IMG/VR virus record: IMGVR_UViG_3300049454_000013 | Span: 1-50,153 of that record | Reading direction: 5' to 3' (one strand) | Source of the DNA: a virus | Lineage: Duplodnaviria > Caudoviricetes | DNA length: 50,153 nt | Shown: piece by piece, positions 1 through 50,153 of the stretch | Position numbering within the stretch: the stretch's first letter is position 1 | Layout of the letters: each line of letters opens with the position of its first letter | Notes under the pieces: model-generated | Database searches by the model: none | What the model saw: the letters and a program-made list of their open reading frames with translations, nothing else | What the model was told of the DNA's origin: nothing | Position numbers and translations under genes: made by a program

Positions 1-127
1 TGCTGTATTACCGTATAGTGAAATTGATAAGGTTGGAGCTGGCATGTATAAAGGAAAAGCTGTAAGTTTGAAGCAACGGCGCTCATAGCTCAGTTGGTAG
101 AGCATTGCTGTTCCACAGCAAGGGTCG
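1..127. repeat. 127-bp terminal direct repeat (identical to 50027-50153); circular assembly overlap, genome 50,026 bp
   Basis: 1-127 matches 50027-50153 exactly. The length equals a common assembler k-mer (127), and the repeat cuts through a CDS and a tRNA. Confidence 0.95.
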
Positions 128-152
128 GGGGTTCGAATCCTACCTGAGCGCT
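79..152 (+). tRNA. tRNA-Gly(UCC), atypical
   Basis: Acceptor GCGCTCA/TGAGCGC, D-arm GCTC-AGTTGGTA-GAGC, anticodon arm TTGCT-GT-TCC-AC-AGCAA, T-loop TTCGAAT, discriminator T. T-stem GGGGG/CCTACC has one bulged A. CCA is not encoded. Confidence 0.9.
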
Positions 153-174
153 CATTTTTAAAACCCCTAATACG

Positions 175-3138: not shown

Positions 3139-3474
3139 ATGCCAAAAAGAGAATATCACTTTGCTGTAATTACAAAGGCTACGTTTGTGCATGAACAGGG
3201 GGCACCAACTTCGACAGTAAAGCATACAGATTTACGGTTAGAGGTTTCTGGCAACCTGGATAAAACCCAGTACTTAGATGGTAAAGGGTTACCCCGGAAA
3301 GATTCAACTAAACCGATATTAGGCACGCTGGTTTTGGGCCTCGTTGCAGCCATGCGTAACGCTGCACAGAAAGGTTGGATGAGTGAAGCCGAATTGATGC
3401 ACTGGGTTACAGATCATCTGCAGGAAGGGTTTGTTACTTCCGGCAAGGCAGGCGAAAGCACAATGGAATATTAA
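3139..3474 (+). CDS. hypothetical protein
   Basis: Likely ATG start MPKRE just after the upstream stop. Confidence 0.6.
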   Translation: MPKREYHFAVITKATFVHEQGAPTSTVKHTDLRLEVSGNLDKTQYLDGKGLPRKDSTKPILGTLVLGLVAAMRNAAQKGWMSEAELMHWVTDHLQEGFVTSGKAGESTMEY

Positions 3475-3489
3475 TTAAAAAACAAGTAT

Positions 3490-3807
3490 ATGCCAGTTGA
3501 TCAATGTAGCGCGAATGACTTTCCAAACATTGACGCCTGTATTGTGGGTATGGATGAAGGGCCTTATACAAAGGCTATGTTAATGCAGTATGAATTGTTT
3601 AAGGCAAATCACGGGCATAGCGTTGAACCCGACTTTTATTTAGTTCATCCATTGGATTACCAATTGTTGTATATGGAATTAGTAAAAACAAAATTCGTAT
3701 ATATACAAGGCCAATGGAAGATGAAAATTGATGGTTATACGATGGGAATACCTGTTATTGAAAGTACCAATATTAAGCAACATGAATCATGTTTCGTAAT
3801 TAAGTAA
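3490..3807 (+). CDS. hypothetical protein
   Basis: ORF in the operon with A-rich leader. Confidence 0.6.
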   Translation: MPVDQCSANDFPNIDACIVGMDEGPYTKAMLMQYELFKANHGHSVEPDFYLVHPLDYQLLYMELVKTKFVYIQGQWKMKIDGYTMGIPVIESTNIKQHESCFVIK

Positions 3808-48066: not shown

Positions 48067-48709
48067 GCCTGCTAAGAAAAAGAAGGTTACCAGGATTGAA
48101 CACTTAACATTTGATACAAAGAATGCCAATAAACATTCGGAGTATGGAACTTCATTATTGAATACTTCCATTCGTAATAATGGCATGGCCCGTTCAATTG
48201 TTATTTCTGATGACAATGTTATAATAGCAGGCAACGGCGTTGCTGAAACAGCGGGGCAACTGGGCATGATGAATGTGAAGGTGATTGAAACGGATGGTTC
48301 TGAAGTTATTGCAGTGAAGCGAACTGATATAAAAAGCGGCACTCCTGAATTTTTTAATTTGGCGCTTGCTGATAATATTGTAGCGCAAAAGAATATAGTA
48401 ATGGATGCCCAGGTAGTTGAGGCCATTGTTGAGGAATACGGCGCTACACAGTTTTGGGCTGAAGTAGTTTTAACGCCCATCATTCCTAAAGTGCTGGATA
48501 AAATTGATCTTCCCGATAATGCAAAGAATGATTTAGTGCAGGCAACGTTTACAATGACAGGGGCCCAGGCTGCAGTAATGCAAGAGGGTTTGAAGATCTC
48601 CAAACGAAAGTTTAAAAAGCAATTTGCCAGTACTGGAAATGAAAACAGTAATGGTAATGCACTGTTCTTTATATTTAAAGCTTTCGTAGATGCAAGCAAA
48701 GCAGAATGA
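48029..48709 (+). CDS. ParB-like N-terminal domain protein of a DNA-modification locus
   Basis: D.KNANKH...L..SI...G..RSIVI......IAGNG and LALADN motifs. Confidence 0.75.
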   Translation: MPRQNTKQIKNGKPAKKKKVTRIEHLTFDTKNANKHSEYGTSLLNTSIRNNGMARSIVISDDNVIIAGNGVAETAGQLGMMNVKVIETDGSEVIAVKRTDIKSGTPEFFNLALADNIVAQKNIVMDAQVVEAIVEEYGATQFWAEVVLTPIIPKVLDKIDLPDNAKNDLVQATFTMTGAQAAVMQEGLKISKRKFKKQFASTGNENSNGNALFFIFKAFVDASKAE

Positions 48710-49379
48710 TTTTTTATTAACAGATTTGGAAGTGTTTGCAATTGATCGCAAAAGCGCAAAGCTTCTTTGTGAAAGGCATCACTACATGAAAACTTATCCC
48801 AATGGTGCTATATGGAATTTCGGCATATATTATAAAAAGAAAATTGCAGGTGTATGTGTATTCGGTTACAGTTCAGCCACACTGCAGAAGGTTACAAAAA
48901 TAATAGCGCTGCCTTTACTGGCAATAATTGAAATGCAAAGGTTATGGATAAGTGACAGTTGCGGGCATAATTCAGAAAGCTATTGCCTGAAAAAAATAAT
49001 TGATTACATAAAGGAACAAACGACTGTTAAACTTATTATAACGCATTCGGGCGGTTGTAAAAATGACTGTGGTATTGTATATCAGTCTTCCTCCTGGTTA
49101 TACTTCGGTAAAACGCCCTGTAAAGATTTCTACCTTACTGCAGCAGGGGAATATAAAAACATTGTAGCATCGATGCGGTTTGGCAGGATAAAAGCGGAAG
49201 GCAGGAAACCCCAGGCAATAGGCGAAGCGCTATTCGGGCCTGGGCAAATAATAAATTCATTTAGGTATACATACGTGTACCCAATTGATAAAGGGTTGCG
49301 CCGGTTGCTTAGTAAAAAGGCATTAGCCTATGAAAAAACCAGTGAACACTTTAGGCGCGGGCAGGAATGGATAACATAG
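48690..49379 (+). CDS. Mom-like GNAT DNA-modification protein 1 (divergent)
   Basis: HHY, G...FG, EM.RLW, NSES, G.VYQ...W.Y.G and Y.Y motifs of Mom-like proteins; the usual SxAD is replaced by THSGG. Confidence 0.75.
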   Translation: MQAKQNDFLLTDLEVFAIDRKSAKLLCERHHYMKTYPNGAIWNFGIYYKKKIAGVCVFGYSSATLQKVTKIIALPLLAIIEMQRLWISDSCGHNSESYCLKKIIDYIKEQTTVKLIITHSGGCKNDCGIVYQSSSWLYFGKTPCKDFYLTAAGEYKNIVASMRFGRIKAEGRKPQAIGEALFGPGQIINSFRYTYVYPIDKGLRRLLSKKALAYEKTSEHFRRGQEWIT

Positions 49380-49427
49380 GGGCCTGACAACGGGGTCTGA
49401 AAAGCCGTTCGAGCCGGCAAGGCTCCA
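49379..49427 (+). ncRNA. anticodon-less tRNA-Ala-like mini RNA
   Basis: Acceptor GGGGCCT/AGGCTCC with G3:U70, discriminator A, T-arm GCCG-TTCGAGC-CGGC, tiny GAC-AACGGG-GTC hairpin, no anticodon arm. Confidence 0.7.
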
Positions 49428-49443
49428 CACAACTTAGTTTGCA

Positions 49444-50114
49444 ATGAACGTAAAGGATATTTTTATACAGCGTATTGATAGCGGTAGCGCTATTCAGTTT
49501 ATTAAGCGATACCATTATTCGGGCAAGGTAGTTTCCAATTCCTCCCTGCACTTTGGTTGCTTCATTGCGGAAAAGCTTATCGGAGTGTTGAGCTTCGGGC
49601 CTTCATTCGATAAGAAAAAAATAATAGGGTTGGTAAAGGGAACTGCCTGGAATGAATTCGTTGAATTAAATAGGATGGCTTTCATTAACGACACGCCCCG
49701 CAATACTGAAAGCCGCTGCATTGGGGTTTGCATCCGTTTAATAAAAAAGCACTGCCCGCACATTAAATGGATTGTAAGCTTCGCAGATGCCACACAGTGC
49801 GGGGATGGAACTGTATACAGGGCAGCAGGCTTCAAACTGTGTGGCATAAAGAAAAACCGTTCAATTATTCGCCTTCCTGATGGCAGGGTAGTAGCTGGTA
49901 TGACGTTCACGAAAGGGACGCATATTTAAAAACAGGGGCTTCTACATTCCCGGAAGGTTCGGAGATCTTACCAGGGTTTCAGCTACGGTATATTTATTTG
50001 CTGAAACCTAACCTGCAGCTAACCGTTGCTGTATTACCGTATAGTGAAATTGATAAGGTTGGAGCTGGCATGTATAAAGGAAAAGCTGTAAGTTTGAAGC
50101 AACGGCGCTCATAG
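49444..50114 (+). CDS. Mom-like GNAT DNA-modification protein 2, split by a -1 frameshift at ~49926
   Basis: HYS, G...FG, ELNRMAF, NTESR and SFADATQCGDGTVYRAAGF motifs. The -1 frame continues LKTGAS...GFQLRYIY...LPYSEID..GAGMYKG to TAG at 50112-50114 (223 aa if joined). Confidence 0.8.
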
Positions 50115-50153
50115 CTCAGTTGGTAGAGCATTGCTGTTCCACAGCAAGGGTCG
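50027..50153. repeat. second copy of the 127-bp terminal overlap
   Basis: Identical to 1-127. Confidence 0.95.

Follow-up and report, generated by a model that had tools for sequence, protein, structure and literature searches.

The virus record IMGVR_UViG_3300049454_000013 of IMG/VR, a stretch of 50,153 nt that we call the window and whose numbering is used for all coordinates without a locus label, carries a small element between two genes of the Mom family of DNA-modification enzymes. Comparison with its relatives indicates that the element, which we refer to as the mini-tRNA, is a conserved, structured and stand-alone phage gene for a tRNA-like RNA of about 49 nt that has no anticodon. 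Decoding by such an RNA is impossible because it has no anticodon; a likely job is suggested by the use of aminoacyl-tRNA as donor by Mom enzymes, as described in the main text of Silva et al. (Nat Commun 2026, PMC13219725). Our preferred reading, to which we assign a probability of roughly 0.6, is that the mini-tRNA would be a non-decoding carrier, charged by alanyl-tRNA synthetase (AlaRS), that serves the divergent Mom paralog Mom1. The gene and its parts are as follows:

49379–49427, plus strand: mini-tRNA gene, G1 to discriminator A73, 49 nt (from the sequence, covariance models R1 and R2, RNAalifold and pair counts).
49379–49385, plus strand: acceptor stem, 5′ strand GGGGCCU; pairs 1–3 are invariant and pairs 5–7 covary in 35 relatives.
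49386–49397, plus strand: D-like hairpin GAC / AACGGG / GUC, 3 bp with GG in the loop; two of three pairs show compensatory changes.
49398–49402, plus strand: single-stranded linker UGAAA, standing where a tRNA has its anticodon arm and variable loop.
49403–49419, plus strand: T-arm A-GCCG / UUCGAGC / CGGC-A, a 5-position stem and a 7-nt loop; four of five stem pairs covary.
49420–49427, plus strand: acceptor stem, 3′ strand AGGCUCC (49420–49426), and discriminator A73 (49427); U70 is 49424.

The original prediction had placed an anticodon-less mini-tRNA at 49379–49430, and all the features that it listed are found in the sequence. The gene itself ends at 49427; the trailer 49428–49430 reads CAC, so that CCA is not encoded in the window copy, as had been claimed. 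The acceptor stem contains the named G1:C72, G2:C71, G3:U70 and G4:C69, followed by C5:G68, C6:G67 and U7:A66, and A73 is present. The T-arm and the 3-bp hairpin with a GG-containing D-like loop are both in place, the hairpin abutting the acceptor stem without a spacer. The acceptor and T-arm stack of a tRNA (7 bp plus 5 bp, a UUCRANY T-loop and G53:C61) can be recognized, with four of the five T-stem pairs formed in the window copy and an A.A mismatch where pair 49:65 would be, which recurs in the nearest relative, L101. Between the D-like hairpin and the T-arm there is only the 5-nt linker; the anticodon arm of a canonical tRNA as modeled by RF00005 or ARAGORN, with its 5-bp stem and 7-nt loop, is absent. 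An mRNA-like domain is likewise lacking, as had been predicted, in an element of 49 nt in total for which ARAGORN calls no transfer-messenger RNA (tmRNA). G1 is also the final base of the TAG stop codon of Mom1.

The prediction that standard tRNA finders would miss the element was correct, both ARAGORN and Rfam being silent at it. ARAGORN called only the tRNA-Gly gene at 79–153 in the window, found nothing in its tmRNA search of the window, and made no call at the element in any of 32 related loci scanned. Rfam gave no match at the element at the gathering score, and nothing tRNA-like up to E = 10 within 49200–49600, RF00005, RF00023 and RF01684 included; the mini-tRNA is absent from every curated RNA family. 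An exact search of IMG/VR with a 23-nt pattern gave no match. Folded as a single sequence, the element reaches a minimum free energy (MFE) of −19.1 kcal/mol (z = −1.05; 26 of 200 shuffled sequences were equal or better), and the T-arm is missing from the MFE structure. Single-sequence folding is of no use as evidence in either direction. Given no finder call and an uninformative fold, the window copy taken alone would be an unproven curiosity, and it might be a stem-loop formed by chance, a tRNA or tmRNA pseudogene in decay, a tRNA fragment of the attP type or an intrinsic terminator of Mom1; the weak fold, the silence of the tRNA finders and the site at a gene end all fit such explanations.

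Relatives of Mom1 are numerous in metagenomes, at 50–67% identity, and an alignment of 39 of them was used as the query. The loci gathered comprised 51 viral, 59 metagenomic and 4 genome-collection sequences, and when the DNA 3′ of the Mom1 match was printed unfiltered, the same kind of element was seen in most of them. Covariance model (CM) R1 was built from 35 sequences of the short class to which the window copy belongs, and CM R2 is a leave-out model from 35 relatives, without the window copy and its nearest relative L101. R1 scores the window copy at 55.3 bits (E = 3.2e-12). R2 finds 49379–49430 at 40.5 bits (E = 1.8e-8), and the runner-up site in the 50-kb window reaches 12.1 bits (E = 0.42). 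With R1 and a cut-off of E ≤ 0.01, 101 of the 115 sources from the Mom1 clade have exactly one element each, and neither of the controls (phage Mu and a distant Mom locus) has any. With duplicates collapsed, the element is present in 68 of 77 distinct loci encoding Mom1; seven of the nine distinct loci without it are too short or cut by the contig end, and two have enough DNA and no complete element.

Six of the 14 sources missed by the CM have 7 nt or less after Mom1 (L047, L052, L104, L108, L109 and L113). In L110 the contig breaks off inside the element, whose 5′ part is visible; the contig of L074 stops at Mom2; and L050 does have the element, at E = 0.0035 when the search is smaller. L118 has a variant mini-tRNA with G3:C70 and G73, the single lineage of L037, L038 and L097 shows no element in the 3.8–4.4 kb examined, and in L046 only the 3′ half is left. 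At L046:2990-3035 the Mom1 match breaks off at residue 178 and is followed at once by the T-loop and the 3′ acceptor strand, an arrangement which suggests that a deletion removed the end of Mom1 together with the 5′ half of the RNA.

Base pairs were counted in a 35-sequence alignment of the short class. The all-class MAFFT alignment, in which the 5′ ends of long variants are misaligned, and the CM-made alignment, which sets a wrong 5′ start in the long variants L019, L105 and L107, were not used for these counts. Of 525 cells, 99.6% are paired, and compensatory changes on both sides are found in 9 of 15 pairs (106 cells). None of 500 shuffles matched the observed pairing values, and pairing falls to 39–57% when the partners are shifted by 1–3 columns. 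RNAalifold predicted the same structure independently from this alignment. The check suggested with the original prediction, for conservation and covariation 3′ of homologs of Mom1, has thus been run and has found both. It is the comparison, and not the fold of a single sequence, that settles the element as real, because the leave-out model recovers it and its stems covary. With these compensatory changes, and with 56 distinct sequences of the same architecture, we give a chance or decayed structure next to no weight. An attP fragment was rejected because both acceptor strands are present and covarying, which is needless for attP, and a terminator of Mom1 because a promoter and terminator scan at the window element called no site and no T-run follows it.

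The same 35 sequences bear on amino-acid identity. G1:C72, G2:C71, G3.U70 and A73 are unchanged in all of them and pair 4:69 is G:C in 33 and G:U in two, next to acceptor pairs 5, 6 and 7 with five, four and three pair types, respectively. That G3.U70 has never changed to G:C or A:U beside freely covarying neighbors is a mark of selection on the wobble pair itself. According to passages of PMC9976931, the bacterial alanine identity set consists of A73, G2:C71, G3.U70, G4:C69 and G20. The window copy shares G3.U70 with all 35 aligned relatives, and the sole exception seen is L118; an unfiltered print of the spacers and a looser finder also gave no non-alanine identity apart from that locus. The D-like loop holds GG or GGG, at positions that cannot be equated with G20 of a full D-loop, which is a minor alanine determinant. 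This pattern of change shows the alanine determinants of the acceptor stem to be under selection.

Acceptor-stem and T-stem counts were extended to 54 distinct sequences by a script counting from both ends, on output of a finder that required GGGG, U70 and A73, so that the invariance of GGGG, U70 and A73 in this count is partly circular. In the T-loop of these 54 members, U54, R57 and A58 are present in 54 and U55 and C56 in 53, and G53:C61 is found in 54 of 54. A 3–4-bp hairpin follows position 7 in all 56 distinct members, with GG in its loop in 54. A tRNA-like elbow between the D-like GG loop and the T-loop can plausibly form.

The 56 distinct sequences comprise a short class of 41 (48–50 nt, as in the window copy), with a linker of 4–7 nt, and a long class of 15 (55–79 nt), with a small extra hairpin in the place of the anticodon arm whose loops are 3–13 nt. 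The predicted lack of an anticodon arm therefore holds across the family, the short class having none and the long class a small hairpin only. The extra hairpins of L048, L049, L053 and L090 share the loop motif AGCAAU (AGCGAU in L019) on stems that differ. CCA is encoded in 14 of the 15 long members and in two of the 41 short ones; the 3′ end of the short class reads C74, then A or U, then usually A. A divergent member stands at L118:2694-2745, on a contig from a metagenome-assembled genome (MAG) and after a Mom1 relative of 45% identity: its G3:C70 and G73 are accompanied by an encoded CCA and by GUCACUC instead of the T-loop consensus. This variant may mark a switch of amino-acid identity. 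Alanine identity is the rule in the family, not a law.

The alanine-type acceptor stem also recalls tmRNA. Four short-class members match the Rfam tmRNA model at 15.8–23.6 bits (E = 1.4e-5 to 0.027), and the 5′ GGGG, G3.U70 and the CUCCA(CCA) 3′ end are common to the tmRNA consensus, so the element might be a minimal tmRNA-like tRNA domain that enters or blocks stalled ribosomes, or a decoy that titrates SmpB, EF-Tu or AlaRS. We consider this highly improbable. The matches involve the two ends of the model with its middle skipped or, in another run, the T-arm and the 3′ acceptor strand only; scores of relatives (15.4–23.6 bits) lie far below the gathering score of 47 bits, and the window copy has no match. 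The 49-nt element has none of the resume codon, tag reading frame and pseudoknots of RF00023, and this reading leaves unexplained why the element is almost always found with two Mom paralogs and a tRNA-Gly-like gene, in each of three gene orders. In the long class, L073 scores 42.9 bits against the Rfam mascRNA-menRNA model (RF01684), for which the gathering score is 42.5 bits and to which the window copy gives no match. The likeness to the mascRNA and tmRNA models concerns form, and for mascRNA it is not one of descent.

The mini-tRNA occurs in three gene orders. In 56 of the 68 distinct loci it lies in the spacer between Mom1 and Mom2, on their strand (in one further locus the contig ends after the RNA); in five loci the order is Mom2, Mom1 and RNA; and in six, Mom1 and Mom2 overlap or abut and the RNA is on the opposite strand beyond Mom2. 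Mom1 remains beside the mini-tRNA across these changes. The most frequent order would also suit a cis-acting tRNA-like signal for processing or stability in the mRNA of a Mom operon, which would be cut by RNase P and RNase Z to give an excised RNA without a job of its own. The tRNA punctuation of mitochondrial transcripts and the mascRNA end of MALAT1 are precedents to which such a signal can be likened. The element overlaps or abuts the Mom1 stop codon and ends 2–36 nt before the AUG of Mom2 in those 34 of 47 loci in which a downstream AUG was found, and the mascRNA-menRNA score of L073 points the same way. However, in the five loci where the element follows the last Mom gene it separates nothing, and in the six opposite-strand loci it stands beside a tRNA-Gly-like gene. 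In L024, one of these six, the minus strand carries the tRNA-Gly-like gene, 4 nt, the mini-tRNA, 9 nt, and a 9-bp hairpin with a T run (one terminator-like site found, 0.2 expected). Furthermore, RNase P and RNase Z need none of G3.U70, G2:C71, G4:C69 and A73, yet these are invariant or almost so. We therefore hold a processing signal to be quite unlikely. The occurrence in three gene orders, in one of which the RNA is encoded on the other strand and, in L024, is followed by a terminator-like hairpin, indicates that the element is a gene for a trans-acting RNA and not a signal in the Mom mRNA.

The protein and RNA genes around the mini-tRNA in the window are:

48690–49379, plus strand: Mom1, divergent Mom-family paralog, 229 aa (Pfam PF25680, E = 1.2e-35).
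49444–49929, plus strand: Mom2, Mu-Mom-like paralog, 161-aa open reading frame (ORF) (Pfam PF25680, E = 1.1e-44, profile positions 2–150 of 202).
79–153, plus strand: tRNA-Gly(UCC), directly after Mom2 (ARAGORN; Rfam tRNA, 43.2 bits); 50105–50153 is the same gene via the terminal repeat.

Both proteins belong to the Mom family, with PF25680 scores of 123.5 bits (Mom1) and 152.9 bits (Mom2) against a cut-off of 27.1. Mom1 matches the structure of Mu Mom (PDB 8bv8) at E = 1.3e-7. Identity to Mu Mom is 21–24% for Mom1 and 31–33% for Mom2 (five Mom2 sequences aligned). Both paralogs invariably have the equivalents of the Mu Mom residues H58, Y59, R111, S124 and Y159 (10 aligned sequences), where the numbering rests on an inferred offset of 10 between the paper and the database protein that all five residues fit. 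In the region of D149 and R151, Mom1 has an invariant GGCK-DCG motif. A tblastn search with Mom1 of 50,697 phage records found no Mom1-clade gene in the cultured phages of that collection; it gave 120 records with Mom-family matches, all below 60% identity, and the 30 matches listed are at 21–33%.

According to the main text of PMC13219725, Mu Mom uses Gly-tRNA(Gly) to attach glycine to N6 of adenine in double-stranded DNA, after which an on-base rearrangement follows. As described there, Mu Mom is a tight dimer, is selective for tRNA and amino acid alike, accepts all three tRNA-Gly isoacceptors, rejects both Ala-tRNA(Ala) and Gly-tRNA(Ala), probably reads the acceptor end of the tRNA, and is inactive as the R151A variant; TacT and AtaT are named as GNAT enzymes with an aminoacyl-tRNA substrate. 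The linkage of the mini-tRNA to Mom genes in 68 of 77 loci and in three gene orders couples it to an aminoacyl-tRNA-dependent transferase, the tRNA dependence of the family being taken from Mu Mom alone (PMC13219725).

These elements can be assembled into a scheme. The RNA would be transcribed with the Mom genes or, in some phages, as its own unit on the other strand, trimmed by RNase P and 3′ processing enzymes, and completed by the host CCA-adding enzyme where CCA is not encoded. AlaRS reportedly charges anticodon-less minihelices with G3:U70, a finding ascribed to Francklyn and Schimmel in 1989, and host AlaRS could in the same way charge the mini-tRNA with alanine by means of G3:U70 and A73. 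The charged RNA would be a private aminoacyl donor for the adjacent Mom1. If Mom1 works like Mu Mom, it would then move the aminoacyl group onto a base of DNA, probably at the N6 position of adenine. The product could be an N6-alanyl-dA rearranged to a 1-carbamoylethyl analog of the Mu adduct; alternatively, Mom1 could add alanine to a glycyl intermediate in the manner of Fem enzymes. Lacking an anticodon, such a carrier would be no competitor in decoding; ribosomes would not engage it, and nucleases that cut anticodons would have no target in it. That the AlaRS identity set has been strictly kept is an argument for the importance of charging.

This retention also bears on a further alternative, namely that the RNA works with the Mom proteins without donating an amino acid: as an uncharged cofactor, a scaffold, a regulator (for example of toxic Mom activity), a substrate of Mom1, or a decoy against GNAT toxins or tRNA-directed defenses. 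The synteny that speaks for a donor speaks equally for such roles, the active-site region of Mom1 is unlike that of Mu Mom in having GGCK-DCG and no equivalents of D149 and R151, and GNAT enzymes that act on aminoacyl-tRNA are known (TacT and AtaT in the main text of PMC13219725). We nevertheless regard a non-donor RNA as unlikely, given that the AlaRS identity set is strictly kept and that Mom2, the Mu-like paralog, is in parallel paired with a neighboring tRNA of full glycine identity, in agreement with the demonstrated role of Gly-tRNA(Gly) as donor (PMC13219725).

Several observations weigh against an alanine carrier for Mom1. Some concern the enzyme: because Mu Mom rejects Ala-tRNA(Ala), Mom1 would need a changed specificity, and an equivalent of D149 is found in Mom2 only and one of R151 in neither paralog. 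As to the RNA, a search of public sequencing runs for the locus returned two runs of DNA or unknown type, one possibly of the source sample, and no RNA run, and we infer the transcription, end processing, CCA addition and charging of the mini-tRNA. Alanine identity is not universal in the family, L118 being the exception, and a single lineage (L037, L038 and L097) has both Mom genes and the tRNA-Gly but no mini-tRNA in the 3.8–4.4 kb examined; it is the only sufficiently covered lineage without one. The window copy scores 55 bits, below the 62–80 bits of the rest of the short class, and has the A.A mismatch in its T-stem.

Other points on the same side arise from the overlap of the RNA gene with Mom1. 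Among 47 distinct same-strand loci there are 21 whose Mom1 ORF enters the element by 14 nt and stops at a UAG in the D-like loop; this stop lies within the conserved CCAAUAGGGG D-like hairpin at L025:2659-2673 and in 20 other distinct loci. There the last four sense codons of Mom1 share bases with the 5′ end of the RNA (G-G-D-Q in L013 and L025). Excision of the RNA at such loci would leave a Mom1 mRNA without a stop codon, and coding constraint could account for some of the conservation at the 5′ end. In 13 of the 47 loci the Mom1 ORF ends at or before G1, all three reading frames of Mom1 relative to the element occur among the 47, and in 37, with a stop within 15 nt of G1, the 3′ strand of the element, including U70, is outside the Mom1 ORF.

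Finally, the module in the window is perhaps partly decayed, for Mom2 carries a frame break. Its 161-aa ORF ends at the TAA at 49927–49929, and its C-terminal part (GFQLRYIY...GAGMYKGK...) is in another frame, open from 49881 (a start set by hand translation) to 50116 and ending within the tRNA-Gly gene; the tblastn pieces of Mom2, 49450–49998 and 49974–50111, are likewise in different frames. Intact relatives of Mom2 have 213–279 aa. The break could reflect a pseudogene, an assembly error or recoding. With this break, the A.A mismatch and the lower score, the module is best studied in an intact relative.

The second RNA of the module resembles tRNA-Gly, and its gene usually follows Mom2. Of the 57 distinct loci long enough to be judged, at least 49 carry it. 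Examples, one line for each strand, are:

L013:3898-3968, L022:3884-3955 and L029:3872-3941: tRNA-Gly-like genes in module loci.
L024:3871-3940, minus strand: tRNA-Gly-like gene in a module locus.

For comparison, passages of PMC9976931 give the bacterial glycine identity set as U73, G1:C72, C2:G71, G3:C70 and C35C36. In the 49 loci these genes have U73, G1:C72, C2:G71 and an NCC anticodon (UCC in 39, ACC in nine and CCC in one), with G3:C70 in 42 (GCG/CGC acceptor ends) and C3:G70 in seven. Many copies are odd, having 8-nt anticodon loops, A33, D-loops without GG, UGC for the UUC of the T-loop or a bulged T-stem, and ARAGORN detects only some of them; the copy in the window is fairly canonical. 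Locus L066 has two such genes, at 1231-1303 upstream of Mom1 and at 3431-3503 after Mom2, with ACC-type loops and encoded CCA, and in the lineage of L037, L038 and L097, Mom1 and Mom2 abut and are followed by a tRNA-Gly(ACC)-like gene with encoded CCA. By its looks, the second RNA would be a non-proteinogenic tRNA-Gly that serves Mom2, the Mu-like paralog.

Taken together, the two RNAs may extend the proposed role of the mini-tRNA to a two-channel writing of amino acids onto DNA, in which each Mom paralog would use its own phage-encoded carrier RNA. Mom2 and the tRNA-Gly(NCC)-like RNA would make a glycine-derived adduct of the Mu type, Mom1 would add an alanine-derived group, and the phage would have two enzyme and carrier pairs for hypermodification of DNA with amino-acid-derived groups. 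We put this at slightly less than even odds. The tRNA-Gly would in this two-channel scheme have drifted away from translation, an idea that A34, A33, the 8-nt anticodon loops and the altered D- and T-loops make attractive and that we hold only tentatively. Just as tentative is the thought that the mini-tRNA would then be the first natural free-standing tRNA of the minihelix type, charged by AlaRS through the operational code of the acceptor stem alone.

The window itself is a complete virus record of 50,153 bp with 127-bp direct terminal repeats. It has 59 ORFs of 90 aa or longer, 56 of them on the plus strand. Its other genes encode a DnaB-type helicase, a YqaJ-type exonuclease, an RNase H, an RNase T-type exonuclease and a DUF5131 protein. 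The region 3837–29380, whose ten largest ORFs gave no Pfam match at E ≤ 0.001, is presumably the structural module. A blastn search with 48600–50153 gave no match in the 50,697 phage records, and the phage is far from described phages.

Among known systems, the mini-tRNA is most like the tRNA-Ala minihelix or the tRNA-like domain of tmRNA. With the synthetic minihelix it has in common the 12-bp acceptor and T-arm helix, G3.U70, G2:C71, G4:C69, A73 and the lack of an anticodon; unlike it, the phage element is a natural conserved gene, with an extra 3–4-bp D-like GG hairpin and a linker, that is tied genetically to two Mom genes and is presumed to be charged. The tRNA-like domain of tmRNA (RF00023) shares the alanine-type acceptor stem (GGGG..., G3.U70, ...CUCCACCA), the T-arm, a reduced D region and the absence of an anticodon, but the mini-tRNA has no mRNA-like domain, tag frame or pseudoknots and is linked to DNA-modification enzymes, not to smpB. 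The long class resembles mascRNA/MEN-beta (RF01684) in its 7-bp acceptor stem, abutting 3-bp D hairpin, short middle hairpin and T-arm; mascRNA differs in having no alanine identity set, and the short-class copy of the window does not match its model. In passages of PMC9976931, mascRNA is described as cut from a mammalian long non-coding RNA and inactive in aminoacylation.

The closest functional parallel is with non-proteinogenic tRNAs of GNAT-fold transferases, extra tRNA species that feed an activated amino acid to such an enzyme outside translation. Known examples, such as the staphylococcal tRNA-Gly species for the peptidoglycan bridge, are full cloverleafs with an anticodon and are encoded by the cell. 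The odd-loop tRNA-Gly of the phage module fits this kind closely, whereas the mini-tRNA differs in having no anticodon arm, in being phage-encoded and in its presumed acceptor, DNA. That some tRNAs are dedicated to peptidoglycan synthesis is noted in passages of PMC9976931. Phage Mu, whose Mom uses host Gly-tRNA(Gly), shares with the module the PF25680 proteins and the conserved H58, Y59, R111, S124 and Y159, but Mu has one Mom and no tRNA gene of its own, whereas the present module has an RNA gene for either of its two paralogs, one of these RNAs being of an anticodon-less alanine type. Our literature search found no description of a Mom-linked tRNA-like RNA, and the main text of PMC13219725 makes no mention of a tRNA-like RNA, minihelix, tmRNA, paralog, encoded tRNA, neighbor or genomic context.

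The CM finds a class of genes that ARAGORN and Rfam miss, and the module is small enough to be rebuilt in E. coli, with two proteins of about 220–230 aa and two RNAs of about 50 and 70 nt. If the proposed role is correct, the mini-tRNA would be a natural case of an RNA charged through acceptor-stem signals alone, so far a laboratory construct and an idea about the origin of translation, and an anticodon-less charged RNA would have been kept by selection in dozens of phage lineages. It would also extend the 2026 discovery that Mom uses charged tRNA, in that some phages would bring dedicated carriers rather than only scavenge host tRNA. From a second Mom clade that would probably use alanine, one would expect a hypermodification of DNA that is new, together with further rules of specificity between GNAT enzymes and tRNA, and an alanine-derived group on DNA would be a modification not yet described.

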